Assembly (NCBI GenBank): GCA_949299195.1 | Contig: CASFZN010000018.1 | Coordinates: 262,129-326,128 of the forward strand | DNA from: an uncultured bacterium | GTDB taxonomy: Bacteria > Bacillota_I > Bacilli_A > RFN20 > CAG-826 | DNA length: 64,000 nucleotides | Reading direction: 5' to 3' | In this document: positions 585 to 58,823 of the stretch, one piece after another | How the letters are laid out: the number at the start of each line of letters is the position of its first letter | How positions within the stretch are numbered: position 1 is the stretch's first letter | Translations under genes and position numbers: made by a program | Notes under the pieces: model-generated | The model's database searches: none | Seen by the model: the letters and a program-made list of their open reading frames with translations, nothing else | What the model was told of the DNA's origin: nothing

Positions 585-600
585 GGTTCCACGTGGAAAC
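585..600. repeat. Dispersed palindrome copy 1 (variant GGTTCCACGTGGAAAC plus T7 tract), intergenic
   Basis: Matches the consensus 16-mer at 15/16 positions and is flanked by AA...TTTTTTT. Confidence 0.8.
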
Positions 601-780
601 TTTTTTTATAACCGAAATTTGCTATTTAATTACTGAAATTCTACTAACAATCAGTCTTTAAAAAATCGTTATCAAATTTGTAGACAAAGTTGTATTTATC
701 TTGTAAACTATGGCTAACATAATTAAATGAAAGACAAAATAAACCGTTTGGATTTATTTATGTTAATATTTTTCTCCTTT

Positions 781-810
781 AAACTGAGTAATATACTCAG
801 TTTTATTTTT
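781..810 (+). terminator. Intrinsic terminator-like hairpin (10-bp stem AAACTGAGTA/TACTCAGTTT, 3-nt loop) plus T-tract in the leader upstream of the flavoenzyme gene
   Basis: A perfect inverted repeat is followed by TATTTTT. A TATAAT hexamer follows at about 827 and the gene RBS/ATG at 882. Confidence 0.4.
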
Positions 811-881
811 GTGCATTTGTTTTATAATATATGTAATTCGATTTTGATTTTAAAATCATATAAAAAGGGGAAAAATAATTT

Positions 882-2939
882 ATGAAAAAAGAATATGAAT
901 CACTTTTTACTCCCTGGAAGATAGGCAATGTCACAATTAAAAACAGAATTGTAATGTGCCCAATGGGTGGAACCTCTCTTTTTGGATGGATGCAACCAAG
1001 CACTTTCAATAAAGTTGCTGCAGATTTATTCCTCGAAAGAGCTAAAAACGATGTAGGTTTAATTATTCCAGGAATTGCGCCGTTAAGAGATTCTATCGGA
1101 GGTAAATGGTTATATAAAAACAAGAAAGCTTTTGAAGAACTCGCAAAATATATGGAAGAATTCCATAAAACAGGCGCAAAAATGTTTGTCCAACTAACTG
1201 CAGGATTTGGTAGAAGTTATGCAATTAATAAGGAAGCTGCTTTATTGCTTAAATATAAAGCACTTGGAGCAATCGCTAAACCTATTTTAGATGTTTCCTA
1301 TTTAACTGCATCACCATCTGTTTTACCATCTAGATGGGATCCAGAACTTAAATGTCGTGAGATGACTAGAAAAGAAATAAACGAAATTGTTTTTGCTTAT
1401 GCAGAGACATCAAGAATGTTAAAAGAAGCAGGAGTTGATGGAGTTGAAGTTCACGCAGTTCATGAAGGTTATTTATTAGATCAATTCACTCTTAAATATA
1501 CAAACTTTAGAAAAGATGAATATGGCGGAAGTTTTGAAAATAGATATCGTTTCCCTGTTGAAGTTGTTCAAGCAATTAAAAAGGCATGCGGAGATGATTT
1601 CCCAGTTTCATTAAGATATTCCGTTATTTCTAAAACAAAAGGCTTTGAATATGGAGCATTACCTGGAGAAACTGACTATATTGAAGTTGGTAGAGATATG
1701 GAAGAATCCATTAAAGCTGCTAAATATTTAGAAGAAGCAGGGTATGACATGTTAAATGCTGATAATGGTACATATGACGCTTGGTATTGGGCTCATCCAC
1801 CAGTTTATATGCCATATAATTGTAACTTAGAAGATTGTGTAGAAATTAAAAAGCACGTAAAAATCCCTGTTGTTTGTGCAGGTAAAATGCAACTTGATGT
1901 TGCTTCTAGAGCAATTCAAGAAGGCAAGATTGATGCAATGGGTGTTGCAAGACAATTCTTAACTGATGGAGAATGGGTTAATAAAGTTATCAACGATAAA
2001 GAAGAAGATATCATGCCATGTATTCAATGTCATAACGGTTGTTTTGCTTTATGTAAATATAAAGGAGTTCCAAACACTCAATCCTTACATGAAGTTAAAC
2101 AAATGTCTCGATGTGCATTAAATCCAACCACAATGACTGGAGATAAATATAAATTAACTCCAGCAAAAGAAAAGAAACATGTTGTAATTATTGGTGGCGG
2201 AATCGGCGGAATGGAAGCTGCTAGAGTCGCTAAATTAAGAGGTCACGATGTAACAATCTATGAAAAAACCGATAGATTAGGTGGAGTTTTCAATGAAGCT
2301 GCTAATTTTGATTTCAAAGTTGAAGACAAAAAACTTATCGAATGGTATAAACGCCAAATGAAAAACTTAGAAATTGAAATTAAATATAACGAAGAAGTCA
2401 AAGACTTTAATTTATTAAGTTATGATGAATTAATTATTGCAACCGGTGCTAAAGAAAAGACCTTAAATATCCCAGGAATTGATAAAGCAATTAGCGCTTT
2501 AGATTATTTAAAAGATAAAGAAAAGGTTGGAAATAGAGTAGTTGTTATTGGTGGAGGCTTAACGGGATGCGAAATCGCTTATGATTTGCATTTAAAAGGT
2601 AAAACACCGGTAATTGTTGAAATGTTAAACGATTTAATGGCTGTTAAAGGTCTATGTTTAGCTAATTCATCATTCTTAAGAGACTATTTCAAAACTAATA
2701 GCGTTGAAGTCTATTTAGAATCAACAGTTCGCCAAATTAAAGAAGACGAATTAGTAGTTGTTGATAAAGCTGAACGACCAACAAACGTTAAATTTGATTC
2801 AATAATTTATGCAACAGGATATACTCCAAATCCATTAACAAAAGGAGCTAAAAATGTCCATGTTATCGGAGATTCTTATAAGGTAGGCAACTTAAAAGAT
2901 GTTATTTGGAGAGCATACGAAGTTGCAATGAATTTATAG
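882..2939 (+). CDS. Two-domain flavoprotein: N-terminal Old-Yellow-Enzyme / 2,4-dienoyl-CoA reductase-like FMN TIM barrel, C-terminal FAD/NAD(P)-binding domain (enoate reductase / NADH oxidase family)
   Basis: The translation carries the OYE N-terminal pattern (KIGNVTIKNRIVMCPMGG, HAVHEGYLLDQF), a 4Fe-4S Cys cluster (CIQCHNGCFALC) and Rossmann GGGIGGMEAA / VIGGGLTGCE motifs. RBS AAAAGGGG precedes the ATG. Length 685 aa. Confidence 0.85.
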   Translation: MKKEYESLFTPWKIGNVTIKNRIVMCPMGGTSLFGWMQPSTFNKVAADLFLERAKNDVGLIIPGIAPLRDSIGGKWLYKNKKAFEELAKYMEEFHKTGAKMFVQLTAGFGRSYAINKEAALLLKYKALGAIAKPILDVSYLTASPSVLPSRWDPELKCREMTRKEINEIVFAYAETSRMLKEAGVDGVEVHAVHEGYLLDQFTLKYTNFRKDEYGGSFENRYRFPVEVVQAIKKACGDDFPVSLRYSVISKTKGFEYGALPGETDYIEVGRDMEESIKAAKYLEEAGYDMLNADNGTYDAWYWAHPPVYMPYNCNLEDCVEIKKHVKIPVVCAGKMQLDVASRAIQEGKIDAMGVARQFLTDGEWVNKVINDKEEDIMPCIQCHNGCFALCKYKGVPNTQSLHEVKQMSRCALNPTTMTGDKYKLTPAKEKKHVVIIGGGIGGMEAARVAKLRGHDVTIYEKTDRLGGVFNEAANFDFKVEDKKLIEWYKRQMKNLEIEIKYNEEVKDFNLLSYDELIIATGAKEKTLNIPGIDKAISALDYLKDKEKVGNRVVVIGGGLTGCEIAYDLHLKGKTPVIVEMLNDLMAVKGLCLANSSFLRDYFKTNSVEVYLESTVRQIKEDELVVVDKAERPTNVKFDSIIYATGYTPNPLTKGAKNVHVIGDSYKVGNLKDVIWRAYEVAMNL

Positions 2940-2963
2940 ATATTCTTTTGGGGGTAAAGGAAA

Positions 2964-4256
2964 ATGAGCGAATATAAAATGAGACTTACAAAAGAACAAC
3001 AAGAAATTTTAGAAGGCAAAAAAGGCGAAACCATGAAGAAAATGATGGAAACGCTTGTCCTTTTTGGAGAGATTTTTGATGCAGAAAGACTTGCAAAAGT
3101 TACTCATAACGAAGGACATTTAGTTACATCGTTTGGCATCCCATTATTAAAACCATTATTTAAAACAATGGAAGAGCTTAATAATGAAGGAATTAAAGCT
3201 CCTGGAGGATTTACTTGCGATCCTCGTCCATTAGATTATAAAAATGTTAAATGTAATTTATTGGAAAAAGCCGTATTTAATCTTGTTTTATACGGAAAAC
3301 AAAAAGAATACGAAGAACAACTTCTAAAAGCAGGACTTACCGACTTAGATTCTTTTTCTTGTACTTGTTACTTAAAAGAATGTGGGAATAGACCTAAAAA
3401 AGGAGACATCTTATCTTGGGCTGAAAGTAGTGCGGTTGTTTTTGCTAACTCAGTTTTAGGTGCAAGATGTAATAGAAATTCTGGAATGATTGATTTGTTT
3501 GGTTCAATTATTGGATATGTCCCAGAATTTGGCTTATTACTTGATGAAAATAGAAAAGCTGATTGGGTAATAGAAATTAAAACTAAAGAAATTCCTGAAG
3601 CTCAAATTTTAGGTTCTGCTATTGGAATGAAAGTCATGGAAGATGTTCCTTATATTAAAGGATTAGATAAATTCTTAGGAACTGAAATTGATGATGAAGT
3701 TGAAGCGTATTTAAAAGATATGGGTGCTGCTAGTGCTTCTAATGGTGCGGTTGGATTATTCCACGTTGAAAATTTAACACCTGAAGCAAAAGAACAAGGC
3801 GCATCTTTAATTAAAAAAGAAATTAAAGGTACCTATATAATCGACGATTATGAACTTGAAAGAGTTTATAAATCTTATCCAAATATGCGGAAGAAAAAAG
3901 ATGCAACTCCTGAAGTTTGTTTTATCGGTTGTCCACATTTAAATCTTTATCAACTTCGTAAATGGCATAAAGATATCTTAAGTAGTTTAGAAAAAAATAA
4001 GAAAACCAAGGTTAATTGCCAAGTTATTTTAACTGCTGCACCAAAGGTTGTTGAAGAATTTAAAACAAAGTATAAAACCGATTATGACAATCTTTATAAA
4101 GTAGGAGTTAAGATCTCATCTATTTGTCCACTTATGTACACCAATAATCCACTCGTACATAAAAAAGCAATTATCACTAATTCCAACAAGTTAAGAACTT
4201 ATTCAATGGCAAGATATTTTAAAGATCAAGATATCTTGGAATTAATCACAAAATAA
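2964..4256 (+). CDS. Aconitase X family, catalytic/large subunit (DUF521-like)
   Basis: 430 aa with an RBS GGGGGTAAAGGAAA upstream. It is immediately followed by a ~150-aa partner gene with an RBS, the split AcnX arrangement. Family assignment is from recalled sequence pattern and architecture, not a search. Confidence 0.55.
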   Translation: MSEYKMRLTKEQQEILEGKKGETMKKMMETLVLFGEIFDAERLAKVTHNEGHLVTSFGIPLLKPLFKTMEELNNEGIKAPGGFTCDPRPLDYKNVKCNLLEKAVFNLVLYGKQKEYEEQLLKAGLTDLDSFSCTCYLKECGNRPKKGDILSWAESSAVVFANSVLGARCNRNSGMIDLFGSIIGYVPEFGLLLDENRKADWVIEIKTKEIPEAQILGSAIGMKVMEDVPYIKGLDKFLGTEIDDEVEAYLKDMGAASASNGAVGLFHVENLTPEAKEQGASLIKKEIKGTYIIDDYELERVYKSYPNMRKKKDATPEVCFIGCPHLNLYQLRKWHKDILSSLEKNKKTKVNCQVILTAAPKVVEEFKTKYKTDYDNLYKVGVKISSICPLMYTNNPLVHKKAIITNSNKLRTYSMARYFKDQDILELITK

Positions 4257-4269
4257 GGAGGGGAAAGGA

Positions 4270-4722
4270 ATGAAAACATTTAAAGGTAGAGTTATCGCAA
4301 AAGGTAATTTCAAAGGCGAAGCTGCTGTTACTCATAGTGGATTTAATACTTTAGCATCCTTCCAAAAATCAGCGTTAATGAATAAGAAGAATGTTATTGT
4401 TAGTGATCAAAATAACAAAGAATTATTTAATAAGGATATTACTGGTAAAATCTTGTGTTTACCAATCACAATCGGTTCTACAACTGGTGGATTAGTTATT
4501 CAAACTGTTTGTGAAATGGGAATAAATCCAAAAGCGTTCTTATTTAGTGAATCGATTGATTCGCTCGCTGCTAGTGGAATTATATTAGCAAAAGTATGGC
4601 AAAATAGTGACGTTATTTGTATTGATAGACTTGGAAAAGAATTCCTAGACACCGTAAAAACTGGTGATACTTTAGAAATTCATGAAGATGGTACAGTAGA
4701 TATTTTACAAACTAATTATTAA
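4270..4722 (+). CDS. Aconitase X family, small swivel subunit (DUF126-like)
   Basis: 150 aa, 13 nt downstream of the large subunit, RBS AGGAGGGGAAAGGA. Gly-rich core motifs (GSTTGGLVIQ) fit the AcnX small subunit. Confidence 0.5.
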   Translation: MKTFKGRVIAKGNFKGEAAVTHSGFNTLASFQKSALMNKKNVIVSDQNNKELFNKDITGKILCLPITIGSTTGGLVIQTVCEMGINPKAFLFSESIDSLAASGIILAKVWQNSDVICIDRLGKEFLDTVKTGDTLEIHEDGTVDILQTNY

Positions 4723-5383
4723 GATATTTATCGATATTTTCTATCATTTCATTAAGTGTTAAATAAACATTACTTAATGGATATCCATCTACAAATACAT
4801 GGGAAACGGTTATATTGAGGGTGACGAAATACTTGTCATCCTCTTTTCTATATTTATCCCAAAATACTCTTGGACAACTGCTTGATGTATGGTTATTACT
4901 AGGAGTTGGATGAGTCATTGAAACAATAGATAACGTTGGGATACACGATATATAAAAAACACCATAATCACCGTCATTATATGTAGTGTCAATATCGCTA
5001 CGTTGGCTATATTCATTTAAAGTTTTACGGCACTTTTTATTAAAATTTGAAAAGGAAAAACTTTCATTAAAATCGGTTCTAGCATTATAAAAGACTCCAT
5101 TTACTTTGCTCATTACAGTAAATGTAGGATGAATAACATCGTAATAATAAATTTCATCATCAATATCTCTATAATGAAATTCTTCTACCTTATTCATTGC
5201 TAAAGAAACTAAATAAATAAAGATGATAAAAAAGGAAATATTCTGTTTTTTCCCATAATTAACAACATTTGTAACATCAACATTCACATTAAAACCATAC
5301 GTTGGGTCACTAAACGTTTTGAAATAGAGATATTGACTTAATTTTTTATAATTTTTCTTATCGATTTTTTTCTTTAAATTCAT
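4712..5383 (-). CDS. CAT-family acetyltransferase (chloramphenicol O-acetyltransferase-like fold)
   Basis: 223 aa, colinear with classical CAT: N-terminal KKNYKKLSQYLYF (the CAT NW.RREHFE-YR region), central FYNARTDFNESFS, and C-terminal catalytic SHVFVDGYP (the CAT HHAVCDGFH motif). Confidence 0.6.
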   Translation of the reverse strand: MNLKKKIDKKNYKKLSQYLYFKTFSDPTYGFNVNVDVTNVVNYGKKQNISFFIIFIYLVSLAMNKVEEFHYRDIDDEIYYYDVIHPTFTVMSKVNGVFYNARTDFNESFSFSNFNKKCRKTLNEYSQRSDIDTTYNDGDYGVFYISCIPTLSIVSMTHPTPSNNHTSSSCPRVFWDKYRKEDDKYFVTLNITVSHVFVDGYPLSNVYLTLNEMIENIDKYLNN

Positions 5384-5449
5384 GATAAATATTCTAAACT
5401 AATTAGACTATTTTTGATAGAATTACCTTATTGATTAAGGGTAAAAGTT

Positions 5450-7864
5450 ATGGATATTAAGGAAAATATTAAAAATTTATCTATTGAAGAGAAAATTTCT
5501 TTTCTTAGAGGAAAAGATAATTGGAGAACTCAACCAATAGAATCTTTAAAATTAAAAACAATCTATATGAGCGATGGACCTCATGGATTAAGAAAAGAAA
5601 AAACTTGTGAAAAATTAGAGGTTTTTAAAGAATCTCATGTAGCAATTTGTTATCCCCCAGCATGTTTAAGTGCATGTTCTTTCAATAAAGAATTACTCTA
5701 TAAAATGGGTGATTATTTAGGAAAAGAGTGTTTAAATCAACGAATTGATGTCCTTTTAGGACCTGGAATAAACATTAAAAGAAATCCATTGTGCGGAAGA
5801 AATTTTGAGTATTTCAGTGAAGATCCATATTTAACTGGTGAATTAGCAACCGCATATATTAAAGGAGTTCAATCAAATAATGTTGGCGTTTCTTTAAAGC
5901 ATTACTGCGTTAATTCTCAAGAATTAGATAGAGCTAGACTTAACGAAGTTGTTGATGAAAGAGCACTAAATGAAATTTATTTAGCAGCTTTTAAAAAAGC
6001 AGTAATTGAAGCAAAACCTGATTCAATCATGAGTTCTTATAATAAGGTTAATGGTGAATATGTTGGTGAATCAAAATATCTTTTAACCGATGTTCTTCGT
6101 AATAAATGGGGATTTGAAGGTTTTGTAGTAAGTGACTGGTGTGCAGTTAATGATGCAGTTAAAGCCCATAAAAATGGTTTAAATTTAGAGATGCCTTATG
6201 GCTGTAACTATAATTATCACGTTTTATATAAAGCCTATAAAAATAGAGAATTAAGCGAAAACGAAATTAATGAAATTGTAGAAAAAAATTATTATTGTTT
6301 CAAAAAATATGAAAATAACGAACCAGTAGATTTTGATTTTGATGAACATCATAATCTTGCAGTAGAAATCGCAAAAGATTCGATGGTTCTCCTTAAAAAT
6401 GAACATAACATATTACCTTTAAGAGAAGAAGAATCAGTTCTTTTTGTTGGAGAATTTGTTAATAGACCTCGCTATCAAGGCGCGGGAAGTAGCGTGGTTA
6501 ACCCTTATAAAGTTACAAATCTATTAAAAGAAGTTAAAAAGTATTCAAGCCATGTAACTTATTTAAGAGGTTATGATAGTTTTAGTGTTCCAAATTCCAA
6601 AAAACTTATTCAAGAAGTTTTAGACAATATTAAAGATAAGGATAAAGTAGTTGTGTTTTTAGGATTACCACCTGAAATTGAAGCTGAAGGTTTTGATAGA
6701 GAAAATGCCCTTTTACCACTTTCTCAACTTATGTTATTAAGAGAATTAAGTAAGGTAAGAGATGATTTAATTGTTGTTTTAGAAAATGGATCAGTTATTG
6801 AAATTGAAGAAGTTATTAGTCTATCTAAAGCAGTTTTAGAAGCTTATTTAGGTGGCGAGGGAATTAACGAAGCAATTCTTTCGATTCTTTATGGAAAAAC
6901 TAATCCTAGCGGAAGATTAGCGGAATCTTTCTTCAAAAAGCTCGATAAATCCTATATTTATAATTATTTAACAAATAATAGAATGGATAGCATTCATAAA
7001 GAATCTATCTTTGTTGGATATCGTTATTATGGTAGAAATCCTTCAAATTTGTTATTCCCATTCGGATATGGCTTATCTTATTCAGATGTTAGATATGAAA
7101 ACTTCAATATCGATAAAACTCAACTTGAAGTTGATGGAAAAGTTAAGATTTCCTTTGATTTAATTAACGATACAGACTATGTCCATAAAGAGGTTGTCCA
7201 AGTCTACGTTTTGAAATCTAACAAGATTGTTTTTAATGCTAAAAGAGAGCTTAAAAATTTTGAAAAGGTGAAAATTATGCCTCATTCTAGTTTCCACGTG
7301 GAAACTTTTGTCTCGTATGAAAACTTTAGTTACTATGATATAAACACCCACGAGTTCGAAGTTTTAGCAGATGATTATTGGATTGAAGTCTGTAAAGATA
7401 GTGAAACTCCTTTAGTTAATTTCCCAATCTATGTAGAGGGAAAAAATTTAAAATCTCCATATGAGGGGAAAGCTAAAAAGTACTATTTAAGTGATGTTTC
7501 AAATATTACTAATGAAGAATATTTAGAAATTCATCCAGATATTAAACTTGCTAATGAAAATGAAAAATATGTTCATGATGTAAACTCTTCAATTACTTTC
7601 GCAGCTTTTAAAGGTTCAAAGGGCGCAAAATTTGTTAAAAGAATTCTTTCGTCTATCCCTCAACTTAAAAAAGATAGATATTCACGCGAATATGTTTTAT
7701 CAAGTCCAGTTAGACAATTTAGATATTTCTCATATACTTATTTTAATGATGAAAATTGCGAACTCATTTTAAAGATATTAAATGATGATCATTATCTTAA
7801 AAATGTATGGAAATTAGCGATGAATCTCAATAAAATAAGAAAAGAAGAAAAGAAAAAATTATAA
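5450..7864 (+). CDS. bglX: Glycoside hydrolase family 3 beta-glucosidase/beta-xylosidase-like (BglX type)
   Basis: GH3 N-terminal motifs SDGPHGLRK and the catalytic GFEGFVVSDW, plus a C-terminal beta-sandwich domain. 804 aa. Confidence 0.85.
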   Translation: MDIKENIKNLSIEEKISFLRGKDNWRTQPIESLKLKTIYMSDGPHGLRKEKTCEKLEVFKESHVAICYPPACLSACSFNKELLYKMGDYLGKECLNQRIDVLLGPGINIKRNPLCGRNFEYFSEDPYLTGELATAYIKGVQSNNVGVSLKHYCVNSQELDRARLNEVVDERALNEIYLAAFKKAVIEAKPDSIMSSYNKVNGEYVGESKYLLTDVLRNKWGFEGFVVSDWCAVNDAVKAHKNGLNLEMPYGCNYNYHVLYKAYKNRELSENEINEIVEKNYYCFKKYENNEPVDFDFDEHHNLAVEIAKDSMVLLKNEHNILPLREEESVLFVGEFVNRPRYQGAGSSVVNPYKVTNLLKEVKKYSSHVTYLRGYDSFSVPNSKKLIQEVLDNIKDKDKVVVFLGLPPEIEAEGFDRENALLPLSQLMLLRELSKVRDDLIVVLENGSVIEIEEVISLSKAVLEAYLGGEGINEAILSILYGKTNPSGRLAESFFKKLDKSYIYNYLTNNRMDSIHKESIFVGYRYYGRNPSNLLFPFGYGLSYSDVRYENFNIDKTQLEVDGKVKISFDLINDTDYVHKEVVQVYVLKSNKIVFNAKRELKNFEKVKIMPHSSFHVETFVSYENFSYYDINTHEFEVLADDYWIEVCKDSETPLVNFPIYVEGKNLKSPYEGKAKKYYLSDVSNITNEEYLEIHPDIKLANENEKYVHDVNSSITFAAFKGSKGAKFVKRILSSIPQLKKDRYSREYVLSSPVRQFRYFSYTYFNDENCELILKILNDDHYLKNVWKLAMNLNKIRKEEKKKL
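7290..7305. repeat. Dispersed palindrome copy 2 (GTTTCCACGTGGAAAC) inside the GH3 gene, in frame (encodes S-F-H-V-E-T-F)
   Basis: Exact 16-mer flanked by A/T (AG...TTTTG). Confidence 0.85.
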
Positions 7865-7889
7865 ATAATAAAAAGGATTTTTATATTTT

Positions 7890-8840
7890 ATGGAAAAGGT
7901 TTATTTAGGCGTTGATGTTGGTGGCATGTCCATTAAGGTAGGAGCAGTTAATGAAAATGGTGAAATTTTAATTAAAGATACTGTTAAAACTGATGGAGAA
8001 AATGTTGATAATTTTTTAAGCGATATGAAAAAGCTTCTCGAAAAAGTTATCAAAGAAGCAAAAGAAAAAGGATATGAAGTAGAAGGAATTGGTTTTGGAG
8101 TTCCAGGAGTTGTTAATAATAAAGAAGGAACCATCGATAAAATGGCTAATATTAAAGGAAAATATATTCCTTTAAGAGAATATCTCTCTTCCCTTAACCT
8201 TCCTATTAGAATTTCTAATGATGCTAATGTTGCAGCTTTAGCAGAACAAAAATTCGGTGCTGCAAAAGGTTATAATAACGTTATTTTATTAACCTTAGGA
8301 ACTGGGGTAGGTGGCGGAGTTATTGTTGATGGCAAACTCTTTGAAGGATATTTAGGAAAAGGAGCAGAACTTGGTCATGTCTGTTTAATTTATAACGGCC
8401 TTAAATGTGGATGTGGAAGAAATGGATGTTTAGAAGCTTATGCTTCAGCTTCAGCTTTATTAAGAGAAACAAAAGAAAAAATGGAAGCCCATAAGGATTC
8501 TGCAATGTGGGACTATTGTGATAATGATATCAATAAAGTAAGTGGCCTTACATCATTTGAATGTGCTAAAAAAGGGGATAAATATGCGATAGAAGTCGTA
8601 GATCAATACGTATCATATCTAGGAGAAGGATTATTAGATTTCTGCAATATCTTTAGACCAGAAGTAATTGTAATTGGAGGAGGAATCTCTAATCAAGGAG
8701 AATATTTATCTAATAAACTTCAATCGTATTTAGAAAAAAGAAATTATGGCTATGAAACCGCTCCTAGAAGTGAAGTTTTAATCGCTAAACTTAAAAATGA
8801 TGCTGGAATTATTGGAGCTGCATCGTTATTAATAAAATAA
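7890..8840 (+). CDS. glcK: ROK-family glucokinase
   Basis: N-terminal LGVDVGGMSIKVGAV ATPase motif and the ROK zinc motif CGCGRNGCLEAYAS. 316 aa. Confidence 0.8.
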   Translation: MEKVYLGVDVGGMSIKVGAVNENGEILIKDTVKTDGENVDNFLSDMKKLLEKVIKEAKEKGYEVEGIGFGVPGVVNNKEGTIDKMANIKGKYIPLREYLSSLNLPIRISNDANVAALAEQKFGAAKGYNNVILLTLGTGVGGGVIVDGKLFEGYLGKGAELGHVCLIYNGLKCGCGRNGCLEAYASASALLRETKEKMEAHKDSAMWDYCDNDINKVSGLTSFECAKKGDKYAIEVVDQYVSYLGEGLLDFCNIFRPEVIVIGGGISNQGEYLSNKLQSYLEKRNYGYETAPRSEVLIAKLKNDAGIIGAASLLIK

Positions 8841-15615: not shown

Positions 15616-15641
15616 AAAAAGTTTCCACGTGGAAACTTTTT
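15616..15641. repeat. Dispersed palindrome copy 3, the full 26-bp perfect palindrome AAAAAGTTTCCACGTGGAAACTTTTT, in the yaaT/glyA divergent region
   Basis: Exact. Confidence 0.9.
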
Positions 15642-15735
15642 ATATATTATTTGTGCTTTCTTTAAAGCTTACTGCTAGATTATACATTTTTTAATTGAGA
15701 ATATAAGTAAAAGGCGATATTTATCGTTTAAATAA

Positions 15736-15751
15736 GTTTCCACGTGGAAAC
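15736..15751. repeat. Dispersed palindrome copy 4 (AAGTTTCCACGTGGAAACTTT), 115 bp from copy 3 and ~90 bp upstream of glyA
   Basis: Exact 16-mer core. Confidence 0.9.
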
Positions 15752-23590: not shown

Positions 23591-24416
23591 TTTAGAGTTA
23601 TTTCAAAAGTATAAAAATAATAAAAACTTAACTGAACGAGATATAAATGAAATCTTAATGTTTGTTAATGAATATAATTCTTTTAACGAACTCTTTTTAC
23701 ACTATGAAGATAAATGCAAAGATGATAAATTAGCCGAAAAAATGTTTTCACGTGGAAACTTTGGTGAACCTATCGAATATATTTTGGGGAAAACCGACTT
23801 CTTGGGACTTCCTTTAAAAATTAATAAAAACGTTCTCATTCCGCGAGAAGAAACAAAAGAACTAGTTATTAAATTAGTTGATAAAATAAATGAAAAAAAG
23901 TTTCCACGTGGAAACTTTTTGGATGTTTGTACCGGTAGCGGGTGTATTGCTATATATTTAGGAAAGAACTTAGAAAATTTTAAAGGTTATGCATCCGATA
24001 TTTCTAAAAAAGCGTTAAAAGTCGCAATAGAAAATTCCAAAAATAATAGAGCTAACATTGAATTTATTCATACTGATAAATGTCGCTATTTCCTTCAAAA
24101 TAGTATGAAATTTGATATTCTTGTTTCTAATCCACCATATGTAGATAAAAAAGAAGAAATCGAGGAAAATGTTTTAAAATATGAGCCTATAAAAGCTGTT
24201 TATTTAAAAAACGGAACCTATTTTTATGAATACTATTTTAAAAATTATAATGAATTAATGAATGAAAAGTTTATAATGGCTTTTGAGATAGGTTATGAGC
24301 AAGAGGAAAAACTCACCAGACTTATCAAAAAATATTTTAAAGACGATAATATTTCATATGAATTCATAAAAGATTTATATGATAAAACTAGATTTCTATT
24401 TATATATAAGGATTAA
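23553..24416 (+). CDS. prmC: Release factor glutamine N5-methyltransferase PrmC/HemK
   Basis: The (GEP)IEYILG ... VLIPREET ... DVCTGSGCIA ... VSNPPY motif order is diagnostic. It contains two in-frame copies of the dispersed palindrome. Confidence 0.9.
   Translation: MNKNNLSKVTPSNLELFQKYKNNKNLTERDINEILMFVNEYNSFNELFLHYEDKCKDDKLAEKMFSRGNFGEPIEYILGKTDFLGLPLKINKNVLIPREETKELVIKLVDKINEKKFPRGNFLDVCTGSGCIAIYLGKNLENFKGYASDISKKALKVAIENSKNNRANIEFIHTDKCRYFLQNSMKFDILVSNPPYVDKKEEIEENVLKYEPIKAVYLKNGTYFYEYYFKNYNELMNEKFIMAFEIGYEQEEKLTRLIKKYFKDDNISYEFIKDLYDKTRFLFIYKD
23744..23759. repeat. Dispersed palindrome copy 5 (variant GTTTTCACGTGGAAAC) inside prmC, in frame (F-S-R-G-N-F)
   Basis: One mismatch to the consensus. 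Confidence 0.8.
23895..23920. repeat. Dispersed palindrome copy 6, the full 26-bp palindrome inside prmC, in frame (K-K-F-P-R-G-N-F-L)
   Basis: Exact 26-mer, 150 bp downstream of copy 5 in the same gene. Confidence 0.9.
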
Positions 24417-38763: not shown

Positions 38764-39138
38764 GGGGATGTCTTGGTTTCGACATGAATGAATTGAGCAT
38801 TATACGCAGTGGAGTTGTGACCTAATCACTAAAAAATATCTGGCAACAGACAATCTTTAGCACTCGCTTGCTAGTTAATTACTAGTAATTGTTTATAGGC
38901 CATAAGGTTTGGCCTTTGAGTGACAGATAGTAGATTAACAGCTTCTTTAGTTTATTATCTGGAGTATTTAGAAGCTAGTTTAGATGATGATTATAGTCTA
39001 GATGAAGTTTATATAATCTATGGAATATTGAAATTTGTTACATTTAATAAATATTCTTAATTCTTTAAATATAACTAAACTGTAGAGGTAATGTGGGATT
39101 ATTTGTGGACCGGAGTTCAATTCTCCGCATCTCCACCA
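38764..39138 (+). ncRNA. ssrA: tmRNA (SsrA), ~375 nt
   Basis: 5' end GGGGATGTCTTGGTTTCGACA and the 3' tRNA-like end GGACCGGAGTTCAATTCTCCGCATCTCCACCA. The tag ORF after AAATATCT reads GGC AAC AGA CAA TCT TTA GCA CTC GCT TGC TAG, giving (A)GNRQSLALAC. Confidence 0.85.
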
Positions 39139-39307
39139 AGTACGTTTTATTCGATATTTATCGTTATTTTTAAATAAATATCGTATTAATATAAATTAAA
39201 AAAGAGGAAAAAGGAAATGAATAAAATATCAAGATAAAAGGCATATAGTAGAAATCTAATTATGCCTAAAAAGAAAATTAAAAAATAAGCTTGGAGGCGT
39301 AATAGTT

Positions 39308-43934: not shown

Positions 43935-43950
43935 GTTTCCACGTGGAAAC
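43935..43950. repeat. Dispersed palindrome copy 7, 3 nt after the stop of the WYL regulator gene
   Basis: Exact 16-mer flanked by AAA...TTTTT. Confidence 0.9.
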
Positions 43951-44308
43951 TTTTTAAAACTTACTAAGGTTTAAAAATAGGTTAATTAACACTTTCGTTT
44001 TTATTGAAATATTTATTTATATTCTTTGTAATCTTCTTTGGAATATTCCGATTTGTAGCCCGTATAAATTTGAATACTATCGTAAAATTAGACTAGAAAG
44101 CGAGAGATATAAAAAAAGAAGAAGCAAAAGCAGGAGCTGAATAATTTGCTCTTTTGAAAAAGATAGTTTGGTAAAAATTATGATTTTTTTAGAGAAAACA
44201 GTAGTCTTTAAACTTAGAAAAAGGCGACAAAAAATCTTTATATTTTTATTTATAAACGTGTTCTAATTTAGTAGAATATTTGTGGTCTTATATAAGGAGA
44301 AATTATAA

Positions 44309-47089: not shown

Positions 47090-47124
47090 TTAAAATAATA
47101 ATTCGATATTTATCAAATAAAAAG

Positions 47125-47140
47125 GTTTCCACGTGGAAAC
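47125..47140. repeat. Dispersed palindrome copy 8, between convergent genes (paralog B end and the 110-aa ORF end)
   Basis: Exact 16-mer flanked by AAAAG...TTTT. Confidence 0.9.
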
Positions 47141-47151
47141 TTTTATTATTT

Positions 47152-51096: not shown

Positions 51097-51101
51097 GTAT
51101 A

Positions 51102-51129: not shown

Positions 51130-51208
51130 ATAGAAAATTGCCCCTTTAAAAGACTATTTAAAGTGCTAAAATAGTAGTTGTGAATATATGACAATTTAGG
51201 AGGATAAT

Positions 51209-52393: not shown

Positions 52394-52431
52394 TCTAGTA
52401 AATATAAATTAAAGAATTAAATGAATGTTAA

Positions 52432-52462
52432 AGATGGATAAAATTTTATCCATCTTTTTTTA
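52432..52462 (+). terminator. Rho-independent terminator (AGATGGATAAAAT/ATTTTATCCATCT plus T7)
   Basis: A 12-bp near-perfect palindrome followed by TTTTTTT. Confidence 0.65.
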
Positions 52463-52495
52463 ACAATATATAAATATTTGATATAATTTTAAGGT

Positions 52496-55327
52496 ATGTC
52501 AAATAGTGATGAAATTAAGATAAAAGGTGCGAAAGAAAATAACCTTAAAAATATAGATTTAGTCTTACCAAAAAATAAACTTATTGTCTTTACAGGAGTA
52601 TCAGGAAGTGGAAAATCCACCCTAGCCTTCGATACTATTTTTGCTGAAGGACAAAGAAGATATGTAGAAAGTTTATCTAGCTACGCTAGACAGTTTTTAG
52701 GTAGTTTTGAAAAACCAGATGTTGAAAGTATCGAAGGTTTATCCCCTTCCATTTCAATCGATCAAAAATCTACCTCTCATAACCCTCGTTCAACTGTTGG
52801 TACTGTTACTGAAATTTATGATTATTTAAGATTACTTTATTCTCGAATTGGAGTCCCTTATTGTCCACATCATCATATCCCAATTGTTGCCTATTCTATT
52901 CCTAAAATAGTCGATTTAATAATGAACAATGAAGAAGGAAGTAAGATTGTAATTATGGCTCCTGTTGTTAAAAAAGAAAAAGGAACCCATAAGGCAACAT
53001 TAGAAAAAATTGCTAAAAATGGCTTTGTTAGAGTTAGAGTTAATGGGGAAATAAAACGTATTGAAGAAATAAAAGACTTAGAAAAGAATATTAAGCATTC
53101 TATCGATATTGTTATCGATAGAATTGTTAATAAACCAGATATTAATTCAAGATTATTTGAAGATATTGAAACTGCTACTAACTGGGGAAATGGTTTTGTT
53201 ATTGTATTAATAAATAATGAAGAAAAATTATATTCTTCGCATAACGCTTGTCCTGAATGTGGTTATACTATCCCAAAACTTGAACCTAGATTATTCTCTT
53301 TTAATAATCCTTTAGGATGCTGTCCTTCTTGTAATGGACTTGGTATAAAACAAGAAGTAGATCTTTCTTTATTAGTACCAGATCCTAATTTGTCAATTAA
53401 TGAAGGCGCCATTCTTTATTATAAATACACTGTTAATACCACCAATTTAGATTGGGCACAATTTAAGGTTTTACTCAATCATTATCATATTTCTTGTGAT
53501 AAACCTTTTAAAGATTTAACTGAAGATGAAGTTGATATTATTTTAAATGGTTCTAGAGAAATTATTGATTATACTTTAACAAGTAGTAGTGGAAACACTA
53601 ATAAAAAACACGGATATATTGAAGGCGTAAAAACCAGAATTGAAAGGCTTTATAATGAAACAAGTAGTGAATTTAACCGTCAATACTACGCTAAATTTTT
53701 AAAAGATACCATTTGCACAACCTGTAATGGAGCTAGACTCAATGAAAGTGTTTTAAATGTATTTATCGATAATAAATCTATTTATGATGTTTGTTTACTA
53801 ACTCTTGATAAGTTATATGAATGGATTAACGATTTAAAATTTAAATTGAGTGAAAATCAACTAAATATCGCTTCGCTTATATTAAATGAAATTACTAATA
53901 GAACTAAATTTTTGTTAGATGTTGGATTAGAATATTTAACTCTTGCTAGATACGCAATGTCTCTTTCAGGAGGAGAAGCCCAAAGAATTAGACTTGCTAC
54001 TCAAATTGGAAGTAAATTATCAGGTGTTTTATATGTTTTAGATGAACCTTCAATTGGTTTACACCAAAGAGATAGTGCAAAACTTATCGCTTCTTTAAAA
54101 GAAATGAGGGATTTAGGAAATACTTTAATTGTTGTCGAACATGATGAAGAAATGATTAAAGCTGCCGATTATATCGTTGATGTTGGACCAAAAGCCGGAA
54201 TTCATGGTGGTGAAATTGTTGCTAAAGGTTCTTTAAAAGATATTGAAGAGAACAAAAACTCTTTAACCGGAGATTATTTAAGTGGTAGAAAGGAAATTAA
54301 AGTTCCTACCTTTAGAAGAAAAGGTAACGGCAAATTTATCGAACTTAAAGGGGCAACTTTAAATAACTTAAAACACGTTGATATTAAGATTCCTTTGGGT
54401 AGTTTTGTTGCAGTTACAGGAGTTTCAGGAAGTGGAAAATCTTCCCTTATTAACGAAACTTTATATAGTGCAATTTATACAAAACTATATAAAGTTAAAA
54501 CTTTCTGTGGACCATATGATGAATTGCTTGGACTCGAAAATATCGATAAAGTCGTTAATATTTCTCAAGAACCAATCGGTAAAACTCCTAGATCAAATCC
54601 GGCCACATATGTAAAAGCGTTCGATGATATTCGTGATATTTTTGCTCTTACTCCTGAAGCTAAAGCCAGAGGTTTTAATAAATCTAGATTTTCTTTCAAT
54701 ATGCCTGGAGGAAGATGTGAACACTGCCAAGGAGCCGGAGTTACTCGTATTCCAATGAATTTTTTACCTGACGTTTATGTTAAATGTGATGAATGCGATG
54801 GTAAAAGATATAATATCGAAACTTTATCATGCTTATATAAAGGTAAAAATATTTATGATATTTTAGAAATGAGCATTGAAGAAGCTTATGATTTCTTTAA
54901 AAATCACCGAAAACTTGCGCATAAACTTAAAACTTTAAATGATGTAGGATTAGGTTATTTAAAATTAGGTCAAAATGCTGTTACTCTTTCAGGTGGTGAA
55001 GCTCAAAGAGTTAAACTAGCTTATTATTTAGAAAGAAAGCCTACTGGAAAGAGTTTATATATTCTTGATGAACCTACAACCGGCCTTCATACAGATGATG
55101 TTGCAAGATTAATTAAAGTATTGAATGAAATCGTTGAGCACGGCGATACTGTAGTTGTTATTGAACATAATCTTGATGTTATAAAAGTTGCCGATTATAT
55201 CATTGATTTAGGACCAGAAGGTGGAGATAAGGGAGGAAGAGTTGTTGCTAAGGGTACACCAGAAGAAGTAGCAAAAAATCTTTCATCCTTTACAGGAGAA
55301 TATTTAAATAAAGTATTAAAGAAATAA
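52496..55327 (+). CDS. uvrA: Excinuclease ABC subunit A
   Basis: Two ABC modules (GVSGSGKS twice, LSGGEAQR twice) and zinc fingers. 943 aa. Confidence 0.97.
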   Translation: MSNSDEIKIKGAKENNLKNIDLVLPKNKLIVFTGVSGSGKSTLAFDTIFAEGQRRYVESLSSYARQFLGSFEKPDVESIEGLSPSISIDQKSTSHNPRSTVGTVTEIYDYLRLLYSRIGVPYCPHHHIPIVAYSIPKIVDLIMNNEEGSKIVIMAPVVKKEKGTHKATLEKIAKNGFVRVRVNGEIKRIEEIKDLEKNIKHSIDIVIDRIVNKPDINSRLFEDIETATNWGNGFVIVLINNEEKLYSSHNACPECGYTIPKLEPRLFSFNNPLGCCPSCNGLGIKQEVDLSLLVPDPNLSINEGAILYYKYTVNTTNLDWAQFKVLLNHYHISCDKPFKDLTEDEVDIILNGSREIIDYTLTSSSGNTNKKHGYIEGVKTRIERLYNETSSEFNRQYYAKFLKDTICTTCNGARLNESVLNVFIDNKSIYDVCLLTLDKLYEWINDLKFKLSENQLNIASLILNEITNRTKFLLDVGLEYLTLARYAMSLSGGEAQRIRLATQIGSKLSGVLYVLDEPSIGLHQRDSAKLIASLKEMRDLGNTLIVVEHDEEMIKAADYIVDVGPKAGIHGGEIVAKGSLKDIEENKNSLTGDYLSGRKEIKVPTFRRKGNGKFIELKGATLNNLKHVDIKIPLGSFVAVTGVSGSGKSSLINETLYSAIYTKLYKVKTFCGPYDELLGLENIDKVVNISQEPIGKTPRSNPATYVKAFDDIRDIFALTPEAKARGFNKSRFSFNMPGGRCEHCQGAGVTRIPMNFLPDVYVKCDECDGKRYNIETLSCLYKGKNIYDILEMSIEEAYDFFKNHRKLAHKLKTLNDVGLGYLKLGQNAVTLSGGEAQRVKLAYYLERKPTGKSLYILDEPTTGLHTDDVARLIKVLNEIVEHGDTVVVIEHNLDVIKVADYIIDLGPEGGDKGGRVVAKGTPEEVAKNLSSFTGEYLNKVLKK

Positions 55328-55376
55328 AAATATACGAATATTAGTTTAAAATAGTATGGAAAAGAGGTAAGTAAAT

Positions 55377-56873
55377 ATGAATGAATTTGTTTATTATTTA
55401 GGTTTAATATTGTTCCTTTTTGGACTTATAAGTTTTATTCCTTTTTTAATGAAAATTTATAAAAAAAGAGGTGAATATAAGACCTTAAAAGAGTTTCTTT
55501 TAGCTAAGAAATTATACTTTATTTTACCTCCTATTGCTTTTGCTTTAGGAATCGTATTCCTATGTATTGCTTTTTATAATAACCCCTATACCATCGAATT
55601 TTTAGCCGAAAAAGGATTATCTACAACTTGGTTCCATCAAACCGGAACATATGTATTTGGAATTCTTTTTGCTTTATCTTTATTTTCATTATTTTATATT
55701 CTTTACATTAAGTTATATTTAGAAAACTTTAATCTAAAAAGAAAGAATTTAAATATTGCGTTAACTATTTCAATTATTGTTACAATCGTTACTTTCTATG
55801 TCTTTGGAGAATGTAACGCTCCTTATTTAGAATATCCTCTTGCAAATGGCGTATATATTGGTGCTCAAGGCATTAAACTTATTAATACCTATACTCAAGG
55901 AATAGATTATTCAAATGGATTTACTATTTATTTATATGCAATATTCATCCTTTTTGGAGCTTGTTTAGTCCTTTATGTTTGTGATTATAAATTATATAAA
56001 ATCTATGGAAAGCATGATTTAATTACCAATACCTTCCTAGTTGGTTTCCCTTGTGGAATTGTCGGTGCTAGACTTTGGTATGTTGTACTTGATGTCTCAT
56101 CAGGTGGTACCAATTTTACAGGTTCAAACTGGGTAAACATCTTTAATTTTAGAGATGGCGGACTTGGTATTATGGGTGGCGCTATCTTAGGAATTATTGG
56201 AGGTGTTAGCCAAATTTTAATTGTTAAATATGGAACTAAGAATCCAAATTATAAGAATTTTGATTTACTTCAAGCAGCTGATATTATCGTTCCATGCATT
56301 TTATTTGCTCAAGCAATCGGAAGACTTGGAAACTTCTTTAATAACGAAGTATATGGTGGATTAGTTGATATTTCTTATTGGGAATGGCTACCTACTTGGA
56401 TTAAAAATAATATGTATTTTCAACACGGAAGCGTTCTTCCTGGACAATCATTAAGTGAAATGATGAATAATGGAGTATTTTCTATGCCGCTATTTTTTAT
56501 TGAATTCTGCACAAATTTAGCAGGTTACTTCATCTTAGAGTATGGAATTAGACATGGATTAAAGAAAATCCATAGTGATGGAACTTTAATTGGTGGATAT
56601 TTAATTTGGTATGGCTTAACTAGAGTCATCTTAGAACCATTAAGAACCAGCGCAGATTATTATGGAACTAGTGAAATTACTGCCTGGGTAATGGTAATTA
56701 TTGGAGTAATAATTGTCATCTTCTTTGTTATTAATAATTATGTATTTAAGAAAAAAGAATTACTTTGGTATAAGAAAAAAGAAGTTGTCACTAATGAAGG
56801 AGTAACTTTAAGTACTAATGAACCTGAAAAAGAAGAAGAACCTTCAAAAGAAAATAACGATAAAAAGGAATAA
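55377..56873 (+). CDS. lgt: Prolipoprotein diacylglyceryl transferase with a ~200-aa N-terminal multi-TM extension
   Basis: Lgt signature region (GGLGIMGGAILGIIGG, GRLGNFFNNEVYG). 498 aa versus ~270 aa for typical Lgt. Followed by a ppaX-like gene as in Bacillus. Confidence 0.7.
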   Translation: MNEFVYYLGLILFLFGLISFIPFLMKIYKKRGEYKTLKEFLLAKKLYFILPPIAFALGIVFLCIAFYNNPYTIEFLAEKGLSTTWFHQTGTYVFGILFALSLFSLFYILYIKLYLENFNLKRKNLNIALTISIIVTIVTFYVFGECNAPYLEYPLANGVYIGAQGIKLINTYTQGIDYSNGFTIYLYAIFILFGACLVLYVCDYKLYKIYGKHDLITNTFLVGFPCGIVGARLWYVVLDVSSGGTNFTGSNWVNIFNFRDGGLGIMGGAILGIIGGVSQILIVKYGTKNPNYKNFDLLQAADIIVPCILFAQAIGRLGNFFNNEVYGGLVDISYWEWLPTWIKNNMYFQHGSVLPGQSLSEMMNNGVFSMPLFFIEFCTNLAGYFILEYGIRHGLKKIHSDGTLIGGYLIWYGLTRVILEPLRTSADYYGTSEITAWVMVIIGVIIVIFFVINNYVFKKKELLWYKKKEVVTNEGVTLSTNEPEKEEEPSKENNDKKE

Positions 56874-56906
56874 ATAATAGGTATTAAATTAATTAAAAAA
56901 ATAATT

Positions 56907-57560
56907 ATGGTTAAACTTTTAGTTTTTGATATGGATGGAACAATTATTGATTCCGATATTATTCTTTATAAGACCTGGCAAGAACTTTATGATCTTTATA
57001 ATGGTCATAAAGTATTTGATATTAAAAAAATAAGTGAATATTCAGGTCCACCTTTAGATTATGCTATTAATGATGCTTTTAAAGATTATGAGGACAAAGA
57101 ATTTATTAGGAAAGAATATCGAAAAAGAACTAAAAAATATTATGATACCGATTTAACTCTTTTTCCTAATACCTATGAGGTATTAAAGAAAATACACGAT
57201 GAACATCATATAAAGTTTGGAATCTTTACCGCTAAAACCTTAGAAATGACTAAATACTGTTTAGATAAATATAATCTAACTGAATTATTTGATGATTTTA
57301 TTACCTGTGATTCAATCTTTCCTCCTAAACCAAATAAGGAAGGAATAGAATATTTAATAAATAAATATAAATTAAATAATGATGAAATAATTATGGTAGG
57401 AGATACTATTAATGATGCTTTAGTAGCTTCTAATTCTAATATTAAGTCAATTATTTTTATGATGCATGAAAGAAAAGATATCGATAAGGTAAAAATTACT
57501 AAAAAAGTAAATAATTATTTAGAATTTTATGATTATTTGTTAAATGAAAAATTAATATAA
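56907..57560 (+). CDS. HAD-superfamily hydrolase (PpaX-like)
   Basis: HAD motif I FDMDGTIIDSD and motif IV GDTINDA. 217 aa. Confidence 0.7.
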   Translation: MVKLLVFDMDGTIIDSDIILYKTWQELYDLYNGHKVFDIKKISEYSGPPLDYAINDAFKDYEDKEFIRKEYRKRTKKYYDTDLTLFPNTYEVLKKIHDEHHIKFGIFTAKTLEMTKYCLDKYNLTELFDDFITCDSIFPPKPNKEGIEYLINKYKLNNDEIIMVGDTINDALVASNSNIKSIIFMMHERKDIDKVKITKKVNNYLEFYDYLLNEKLI

Positions 57561-57593
57561 TAAAATAAAAGTAATTTATAAAGATATATACAT

Positions 57594-58559
57594 ATGAAAG
57601 AAGAATTATCTTTTGCAAAAATAGTTAAAGAAGAAATAACCACTAATGAATTTAATAGAGATATTAATATTTCTTTATTATCTTCATTTTTAAAGTGCTC
57701 TGCACATTTACAAATTAAAGATAATAAAGAAAGAATCTTAATAAAGAGTGAAAACGCAAAAGTAATTCGATATATCTATAACATCCTAAAAAAAGAATTT
57801 AAAAATATAAACCTTACTTTCTCATATCGAAAATCGATGAGATTTAATAAATCTACCGAATACATTATCAATGTTTTAAATCAGGTAGATGAATTATTAG
57901 AAGAATTAAAATTAGACTTTTTATCCACAAAAATCCATAAAGATTTAATAGATAAAGATGAGAAAATAAGAGGATATATGATTGGGTTATTTCTTTCTAA
58001 AGGAAGTATTTCTAATCCTCAAACCTCTAATTATCATTTTGAATTCTATGTAAATAGTGAAGAATATGCTCAAAATATTTTAAAACTCACTTCTAAAATA
58101 AAGGTTTATTATTTTGAATTCAAAATGATAAAAAGAAGAAATAACTATGTTTTATATTTAAAAAAGAGCGAACAAATAGGTAGTTTTTTAGCATATATGG
58201 ACGCATATAATTCAAGTTTAGAATATGAAGGATTAAGACTAGAAAGAGATATGTCTAATTCTGTTAATAGAATGCAAAATCTTGATTTATATAACTATAA
58301 AAAGAGTATAAAAAATAGTGAAGAATTAATCGATTTAATTAAATATATTGATAAGAAGTTAGGAATTAAAAATATAAATAACGAGAAAGTTAGAGAACTA
58401 TGTTATTTAAGAATGGAACATCCAGAAGCTTCCTATCAAGAGTTAGCAACATTTTTATCGATAAAACTCGATAAAAATGTCTCTAAAAGTAACGTCAATC
58501 ACATAATAATTAGAATAAGAGAAATCGGAGAAAGATTGAATTATGGAAAAGAAGATTAG
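57594..58559 (+). CDS. whiA: DNA-binding protein WhiA
   Basis: N-terminus FAKIVKEEI (WhiA pattern FSSEVKEEL), a degenerate LAGLIDADG-like double domain and a C-terminal HTH. 321 aa. Confidence 0.75.
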   Translation: MKEELSFAKIVKEEITTNEFNRDINISLLSSFLKCSAHLQIKDNKERILIKSENAKVIRYIYNILKKEFKNINLTFSYRKSMRFNKSTEYIINVLNQVDELLEELKLDFLSTKIHKDLIDKDEKIRGYMIGLFLSKGSISNPQTSNYHFEFYVNSEEYAQNILKLTSKIKVYYFEFKMIKRRNNYVLYLKKSEQIGSFLAYMDAYNSSLEYEGLRLERDMSNSVNRMQNLDLYNYKKSIKNSEELIDLIKYIDKKLGIKNINNEKVRELCYLRMEHPEASYQELATFLSIKLDKNVSKSNVNHIIIRIREIGERLNYGKED

Positions 58560-58797
58560 AAATGTTAAAAAAGATTTAGCAGACCATTTAAGGGATCTTC
58601 GCTTAGATAGAAATCTTTCTCAAGAAGAAGCTGCAAAGATGTGCGGATTAAGCAAATCTTATTATTGTGAATTAGAAAACGGGGTAAGAAATCCTACTTT
58701 AGAGATTCTATATAGAATAGCTTTAGGCTTTGATATTGAAATGGAGGAGTTATTTCATAATGTTGGTAAATCATCTATTATAAATACGAAAAAATAG
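58543..58797 (+). CDS. XRE-family HTH transcriptional regulator
   Basis: LRLDRNLSQEEAAKMCGLSKSYYCELENGVRNPTLEILYRIA is a classical HTH_3 domain. 84 aa. Confidence 0.7.
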   Translation: MEKKIRNVKKDLADHLRDLRLDRNLSQEEAAKMCGLSKSYYCELENGVRNPTLEILYRIALGFDIEMEELFHNVGKSSIINTKK

Positions 58798-58807
58798 GGA
58801 GGAAAAA

Positions 58808-58823
58808 GTTTCCACGTGGAAAC
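58808..58823. repeat. Dispersed palindrome copy 9, 10 nt after the XRE regulator stop and upstream of sdaA
   Basis: Exact 16-mer flanked by AAAAA...TTT. Confidence 0.9.

Follow-up and report, generated by a model that had tools for sequence, protein, structure and literature searches.

What is a short palindrome that recurs nine times in 64 kb of an AT-rich bacterial chromosome, inside genes as well as between them? The question is raised by a stretch of 64,000 nucleotides, hereafter the window (29% GC), from an uncultured member of the Bacilli (GTDB lineage RFN20, CAG-826; contig CASFZN010000018.1, positions 262,129 to 326,128). The repeated element is the 16-mer GTTTCCACGTGGAAAC. We propose, with moderate confidence, that the nine palindromes are parS-type sites for the binding and loading of a ParB-family protein, spread over 58 kb of this low-GC chromosome. 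Judged by its sequence, the motif is most likely a new variant of the classical parS, longer by 2 bp. Several observations lead to this proposal: the motif is over-represented and has dyad symmetry, its coding copies arose in place, and it is conserved between strains that diverge by about 2.5%. More than 40 genomes from other phyla have the same site upstream of parAB, next to the replication origin (oriC), and the ParB proteins readable there carry a lysine at position 173. Finally, nine sites in 58 kb fit the known parS clusters, and the window contains genes that are origin-proximal in Bacillus subtilis.

A palindrome repeated far beyond chance

A sequence-only reading of the window had listed copies of the motif at positions 585, 7290, 15621, 15736, 23744, 23900, 43935, 47125 and 58808. 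We recovered all nine, seven of them exact and two with a single mismatch. The repetition is beyond chance, as that reading had argued, since none of 100 dinucleotide-preserving shuffles of the window contained a copy. Its remark that the CACGTG core is otherwise rare also held: this hexamer occurs nine times in the window (1.46 ± 1.15 expected), every time within a copy of GTTTCCACGTGGAAAC. We considered an avoidance of CACGTG outside the motif, of the restriction-modification type, and rejected it because only about 1.5 occurrences were expected and their absence is not significant. The half-site GTTTCCAC occurs 17 times in the window, and 16 of these occurrences form abutting inverted pairs.

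The element had been described as a 26-bp perfect palindrome present nine times, which was an overstatement. Only two copies extend to the full 26-mer (AAAAA...TTTTT); four reach the 22-mer (AAA...TTT) and six the 18-mer (A...T). The poly-T flank ascribed to every copy is real, in that TTT directly follows the 16-mer in all nine. The poly-A flank is less regular: an A directly precedes the 16-mer in seven copies, and the complete AAAAA and TTTTT flanks accompany just two. When the copies were aligned with 80 nt on either side, they had in common only about aAG-16mer-TTT (some 22 bp). A wider repeat unit, such as that of a miniature inverted-repeat transposable element (MITE), was sought in this alignment and none was found.

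Six copies are intergenic and three are coding, as first described. Given a coding fraction of 0.926, the probability of finding at least six of nine copies between genes is 1e-5. The density is about one copy per 6.5–7 kb, and the largest gap between neighbouring copies is 20 kb. We could exclude an assembly artefact, since the sites recur in independent assemblies of other samples, including strains that are about 97.5% identical; the window itself is identical to scaffold_1 of ENA ERZ16268187. In the searchable literature the 16-mer appears in no paper, the 14-mer only as an HIV primer, and neither in the context of parS.

The same 16-mer adjoins parAB in other phyla

We collected at least 103 loci carrying the exact 16-mer among GTDB species representatives and 24 loci carrying the 22-mer in JGI metagenomes, which gives the 127 loci listed here. 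They were typed by tblastn with the DnaA, RnpA, YidC, Jag, ParA and ParB proteins of one motif locus. The arrangement dnaA-(rpmH-rnpA)-yidC-jag-[motif]-parA-parB was found in 43 among the 127 loci listed, and in the origin loci containing parA the motif lies directly upstream of this gene. An open reading frame (ORF) of 234–317 residues with a GERRxRA box lies nearby in 25 among the 127, and in 23 of these 25 the motif is 830–1360 bp upstream of the start of that ORF. By our estimate, chance would place an 8-kb fragment in this region in about 0.3% of cases.

The proteins encoded next to the motif are full-length chromosomal ParBs. They match the Pfam families ParB_N, HTH_ParB and ParB_C, and their alignments to solved structures of ParB and Noc have E-values of 1e-42 to 1e-57. 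In the loci carrying a recognisable ParB we found no canonical parS with up to one mismatch. The exact 16-mer is a parAB-linked, oriC-adjacent site of many genomes, and a parS by position and association. Most loci with displayed titles come from Omnitrophota and Planctomycetia, and others from Lentisphaerae and Kiritimatiellae. None of the 24 loci found with the 22-mer in JGI metagenomes comes from a relative of the window's organism.

Examples of the motif between jag/yidC and parA (loci L012–L140) are L077 (3630–5529) and L149 (5168–6834). Some loci hold tight arrays of four to six exact copies within 0.3–2 kb that look like centromere arrays: L086 (7299–7911), L045 (5971–6277), L101 (250–785) and L123 (272–2162). 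These come from metagenome-assembled genomes (MAGs) of Kiritimatiellae and Planctomycetota, among others. Viral contigs gave 18 matches to the motif, none with ParAB. One of them, a phage contig of IMG/VR with portal and capsid genes (L167, 35% GC), has three exact copies in 12.9 kb, at positions 169, 3360 and 9613; this phage could be exploiting a host ParB.

Motif-linked ParBs carry lysine at position 173

In the Caulobacter ParB, Arg173 hydrogen-bonds guanine 1 of parS, and this arginine is invariable both in ParB orthologues and in the parS-specific variants of a mutant library (Jalal et al. 2020, PMC7383237). Alignments to solved structures placed a lysine at this position in the motif-linked ParBs, which read GKDKTTISN where the proteins of solved structure read GKSRPHIAN, GKARSTVAN or GKERSTVAN. 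All 27 readable ParBs adjoining an exact motif have this lysine. Among the 150 nearest representatives of 50%-identity clusters, 132 have arginine and two have lysine. Within the Omnitrophota clade, the top 120 matches show 101 lysines, eight asparagines, five serines, four arginines, one isoleucine and one threonine.

We looked up the site upstream of parA for three non-lysine ParBs of this clade, and each had different outer bases. The site is TGTTCCAC|GTGGAAACA for an arginine-type ParB, AGCTTCCACGTGGAAGAT for a serine-type one and TGTTTCCACGTGGAAATG for an asparagine-type one. These comparisons suggest that residue 173 co-varies with the outer bases of the site. What we propose for the window itself has less support than the link, in Omnitrophota and related phyla, between the motif and Lys173 ParBs.

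Coding copies were made in place

The three coding copies lie in two genes. Copy 2 (exact, 7290..7305) is inside a gene for a GH3 glycosidase (5450–7864), where it is read as S-F-H-V-E-T-F. The other two are in prmC: copy 5 (GTTTTCACGTGGAAAC, GTTTTC..., one mismatch, 23744..23759) encodes M-F-S-R-G-N-F, and copy 6 (exact, 23900..23915) encodes K-F-P-R-G-N-F just before the DxCTGSG motif. The prmC genes of relatives align over both copies without any indel. One relative genus has LFSRANN (ATTTTCACGTGCAAAT) at copy 5 and KLPRENI (ATTACCACGTGAAAAT) at copy 6, and another has VPRGNI (AGTTCCACGTGGAAAT) at copy 6. Genus-level relatives thus already encode (F/L/V)-(P/S)-R-x-N at these positions. The substitutions that separate them from the window include the non-synonymous changes A to G, N to F, L or V to F, E to G and I to F, and the sole mismatch of copy 5 is a conserved serine codon. 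Since the alignments show no difference in length, the sites were made in place by point substitution, not by insertion. This pattern of codon changes points to selection, or drive, acting on the DNA sequence of the prmC copies. In this way a genome would build new centromere sites, by upgrading near-matches that its coding sequence already contains. Another sequence of this kind is found at 87–102, at the 3' end of a TrmA-like gene, where CTTTCCATATAGAAAC differs from the motif by four mismatches and the homologous codons of relatives read GTTTCAACGTGGAAAG and TTTTCCACGTGGAATG; this is a further coding 'pre-site' that resembles the motif.

The sites are also kept, which speaks for a function in this species. 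The four that strains of 97.5–97.7% identity cover, at 23744, 23900, 43935 and 47125, are intact there although flanking bases vary, and copy 5 is unchanged in the 97.7%-identical strain L155. Copy 1, the weakest site, has a second mismatch, in the core, in one strain (L111). About 70 nt downstream of copy 7, from 44023–44060 onward and upstream of eno, the strains of 97.5% identity become highly divergent and differ by an indel; this stretch may be a recombination breakpoint or a hypervariable spacer. We also compared the syntenic 21-kb stretches, holding five of the nine sites, of relatives at about 65% amino-acid identity. They contain no repeated motif of their own, and in one relative the corresponding PSP1–glyA spacer carries a perfect palindrome, TTTTCACGTGAAAA, once. 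An exact copy of the motif with A/T flanks occurs in another low-GC (28%) MAG (L057, 3792–3807), starting 1 nt after the metK stop codon. This MAG, which encodes RecU, MetK and Hpf, is Firmicute or Mollicute-like, so the species of the window is not the only low-GC Gram-positive with the motif.

These data bear on two of the functions suggested for the motif by the sequence-only reading. A selfish element of the repetitive extragenic palindromic (REP) or MITE type is not supported, given the substitutions in place and the lack of a shared unit beyond the palindrome and its short A/T flanks: we found no insertions of a common unit, although an additional 12-nt palindrome at −21 is common to three copies. 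The other suggestion was a DNA uptake signal or, more broadly, a molecular-drive sequence that accumulates through biased transformation. It would account for the lineage specificity of the motif, for its origin by point mutation even in coding DNA under codon constraint, and for intergenic copies that double as hairpins; comFA and comFC are both in the window. Known uptake sequences are asymmetric 9–12-mers, found mostly singly and about once per kb. The motif, by comparison, forms a perfect dyad with 16 of 17 half-sites in abutting inverted pairs, at one copy per 7 kb. Moreover, comF genes are ubiquitous in Firmicutes and present in the relatives without the motif, and an uptake signal would owe its exact identity with a ParB-linked site, found elsewhere at the parAB promoter near oriC, to a coincidence over 16 bp. 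We regard this explanation as very improbable.

Intergenic copies, hairpins and promoters

Copy 1 (GGTTCCACGTGGAAAC, GGTTCC..., one mismatch, 585..600) lies in a 745-bp spacer between the gene of a TrmA-like methyltransferase and an OYE/Pyr_redox gene, and its left half is the canonical half-site GTTCCAC. Copies 3 (exact, with full AAAAA and TTTTT flanks, 15621..15636) and 4 (exact, 15736..15751) are separated by 115 bp upstream of glyA, as the earlier description had it. Both occupy the divergent spacer between PSP1 and glyA, and copy 4 is 71 nt upstream of the glyA ORF. Copy 7 (exact, 43935..43950) starts 3 nt past the stop codon of a gene for an HTH_11 protein and 358 nt upstream of eno. 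Copy 8 (exact, 47125..47140) separates two convergent genes, at 35 nt and 11 nt from their stop codons. Copy 9 (exact, 58808..58823) follows the stop codon of a small HTH_3 gene, itself downstream of whiA, by 10 nt and precedes a gene for L-serine dehydratase by 87 nt.

Three of these copies have a companion. A small palindrome starts exactly 21 nt upstream of copy 1 (CGATAAACATCG, 564..575, plus strand) and of copy 4 (CGATATTTATCG, 15715..15726, plus strand), and a similar sequence starts exactly 21 nt upstream of copy 8 (CGATATTTATC, 47104..47114, plus strand). The fixed spacing is not due to chance, since the window holds only five sequences of this type, CGATA(WWH)ATC(G). The sequence CGATATTTATCG is also present at 39152–39163, where it opens an inverted repeat just 3' of the gene for tmRNA.

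Could the motif act through a hairpin, without any protein, either as a sequence-specific bidirectional intrinsic terminator or as a REP-like structural repeat? The terminator-like hairpins with U-tracts noted in the sequence-only reading are real. U-runs follow the predicted RNA hairpins, whose energies are −8.3 to −13 kcal/mol and whose z-scores range from −3.2 to −5.3, copy 8 is terminator-like on both strands, and copies 7, 8 and 9 and the copy next to metK in the other low-GC MAG are 1–35 nt past stop codons (3–35 nt for copies 7–9). The companion palindrome at 21 nt would suit a structural repeat as well. Hence copies 7–9 have what a terminator has, a hairpin and a U-tract at the end of a transcription unit, but the three coding copies and the two in the divergent promoter spacer do not. 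A terminator does not need an identical 16-mer, and the other terminator-like hairpins of the window are unrelated in sequence. Inside ORFs it would be harmful, yet three copies are found there and were created by substitutions that change amino acids. The copies also have no insertion footprint and no flanks in common, and a terminator leaves the exact identity of the 16-mer, the coding copies and the linkage to parAB unexplained. We therefore consider a purely structural role improbable, while some intergenic copies may also serve as weak intrinsic terminators.

The operator of a dimeric helix-turn-helix (HTH) transcription factor, controlling a species-specific regulon, would likewise be a perfect 16-bp dyad. 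Two copies are upstream of glyA, one each is upstream of eno, of the serine dehydratase gene and of the OYE gene, and HTH genes end right beside copies 7 and 9. The positions are nevertheless poor for an operator, because three copies fall within genes and another three begin no more than 35 nt past a stop codon. Copy 8 is between convergent genes, and copies 7 and 9 sit 3–10 nt past stop codons and 87–358 nt from the next start. Regulons do not usually have nine identical sites of high information, relatives lack exact or near copies at the corresponding positions of their syntenic stretches, and in other phyla the identical sequence is the parAB-linked site. That a dimeric HTH protein would fit a 16-bp palindrome with 8-bp half-sites, as the sequence-only reading had put it, stands; for the protein itself, a member of the ParB family is a better candidate than a global transcriptional regulator. 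There is thus little likelihood, in our view, that the motif is an ordinary operator.

Genomic setting and weight of the parS reading

The window encodes rsmI and PSP1, divergent from glyA, together with holB-tmk-recR-ybaB-dnaX, prfA-prmC-sua5, comFA-comFC, secA-prfB, uvrB, eno, uvrA, lgt and whiA. Outside it, metG is just to the left, and a TldD gene lies in one flank; homologues of the latter carry the names Bacilli, Bacillales, Firmicutes or Clostridia bacterium in their source records. The genes dnaX-ybaB-recR-tmk-holB-yaaT-rsmI and metG are origin-proximal in B. subtilis. The GC skew is positive and uniform throughout, so that neither the origin nor the terminus is inside the window. An Rfam scan of the window matched one family, tmRNA (RF00023, 105.5 bits), at 38764–39138 on the plus strand, and no match overlapped a copy of the motif. 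A very large ORF without a Pfam match runs on the minus strand from 60206 to 64000 and on to position 16107 of L114. It has 1603 residues in the source contig, and its length differs between strains (1603 or 1618 residues).

If the copies are parS-type sites, their action can be pictured from established ParB biology, transferred here to the window's organism. Each HTH domain of a ParB dimer would read one 8-bp half-site GTTTCCAC. The bound ParB would then take up CTP, close into a clamp and slide onto neighbouring DNA. From nine sites over 58 kb a broad partition complex could form, to be moved by ParA and to load SMC. We infer that the organism encodes such a ParB, that this protein binds the sites, and that the window is close to the origin.

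Several results weigh against this picture. Searches with regular expressions and tblastn found no ParB, ParA, DnaA or YidC in the window, in a total of 15 kb of flanks or in the loci of relatives, and a profile search with the Lys173 ParBs matched only proteins of Omnitrophota and no ParB of the window's organism. The association with ParB is established in Omnitrophota and Planctomycetota, not in Firmicutes, and that with Lys173 comes from loci that were selected by the motif and are not phylogenetically independent. The DNA just outside the window, 9 kb on the left and 6 kb on the right, contains no further copy. The copy-free gaps on either side of the nine copies (about 9.7 and 11 kb) are nonetheless no longer than the largest internal gap, so that regional clustering is not demonstrated. 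The six intergenic copies, which form hairpins, fit the role of terminators as well. Lastly, the syntenic stretches of the relatives at about 65% amino-acid identity contain no copy of the motif. The set is young and lineage-specific, which is unusual for a site normally conserved across phyla, and it is mainly this that keeps our confidence moderate.

A broader idea is possible, though we doubt it more than we believe it. There might be a second natural class of ParB–parS pairs, made of the 16-bp palindrome and Lys173, that would be the norm in Omnitrophota and related lineages of the Planctomycetes-Verrucomicrobia-Chlamydiae (PVC) group. One genus-level lineage of low-GC Bacilli would have gained it, either through horizontal replacement of parABS or through convergent re-specification, and would have built at least nine sites in place quickly, in part by accepting amino-acid changes in housekeeping genes. 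From Firmicutes to Proteobacteria, parS is generally regarded as nearly invariant, and Arg173 of ParB as the fixed reader of guanine 1. If such a class existed, with its guanine displaced by 1 bp and a lysine at position 173, it would offer a natural example of a centromere co-evolving with the protein that binds it. It would extend the work on the specificity switch between ParB and Noc, and provide an orthogonal ParB/parS pair for DNA-labelling tools. Prediction of parS from the consensus would then miss whole phyla.

Comparison with known systems

The parS consensus is TGTTNCACGTGAAACA in B. subtilis, TGTTCCACGtGGAACa in Pseudomonas aeruginosa and TGTTCCACGTGGAACG in Myxococcus xanthus, with 10 copies in the cluster of B. 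subtilis and 22 in that of M. xanthus (PMC7022226). Like these sites, the motif has perfect dyad symmetry about CACGTG and is present in multiple copies over tens of kb, in and between genes. Its 12-bp core TTCCACGTGGAA is identical to that of the P. aeruginosa and M. xanthus sites (TGTTCCACGTGGAAC[A/G]). The difference from tGTTNCACGTGNAACa can be read either as a change at the two outermost positions of each half or as a half-site longer by 1 bp. The palindrome measures 16 bp from G to C, against 14 bp in the canonical site (GTTTCCACGTGGAAAC vs GTT[T/C]CACGTG[A/G]AAC): the motif has both TTT and CC, and each half has its outer guanine one base farther out. In register, the motif has four mismatches to either canonical 16-mer, beyond what standard searches for parS accept, and no canonical parS within two mismatches is present in the window. 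The motif-linked ParBs differ from canonical ones by having lysine in place of Arg173, and genus-level relatives of the window's organism are without the motif.

Within the same protein family, the most serious alternative is a ParB paralogue such as a Noc-like nucleoid-occlusion protein, whose sites would be scattered over most of the chromosome and tether DNA to the membrane without forming a centromere. Noc is a paralogue of ParB in Firmicutes, and the window's organism is a member of the Bacilli. No boundary of the cluster was seen. The arms of the motif, xTTTCC/GGAAAx, match those of the Noc-binding site ATTTCCCGGGAAAT (PMC7383237). This site of Bacillus and Staphylococcus is likewise bound by a CTPase of the ParB family, in Bacilli, and dispersed over the chromosome, as is proposed for the motif. 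However, its centre is CCCGGG and its outer base A, whereas the motif has CACGTG at the centre, as in parS, and an outer G, is 2 bp longer, and is much denser. One copy per 6.5 kb is about ten-fold the density of the Noc sites of B. subtilis, which number about 70 per 4.2 Mb. No sequence like ATTTCCCGGGAAAT, with up to two mismatches, occurs in the window, and the exact 16-mer is found at parAB promoters elsewhere. We thus consider sites of a Noc-like protein unlikely and favour parS-type sites.

The DNA uptake sequences (DUS) of Neisseria and uptake signal sequences (USS) of Pasteurellaceae resemble the motif in being over-represented, lineage-specific, found in frame inside genes, and in forming terminator-like hairpins between genes. 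The motif differs from them as a perfect palindrome of abutting half-sites with almost no single ones, about six-fold sparser, and linked to parAB elsewhere. Other short palindromes that recur many times in a single region of a chromosome are also recognised by a dimeric organiser protein, namely the ram motifs bound by RacA in B. subtilis, matS, and the sites bound by SlmA. Their sequences are unrelated to that of the motif, which points specifically to ParB.

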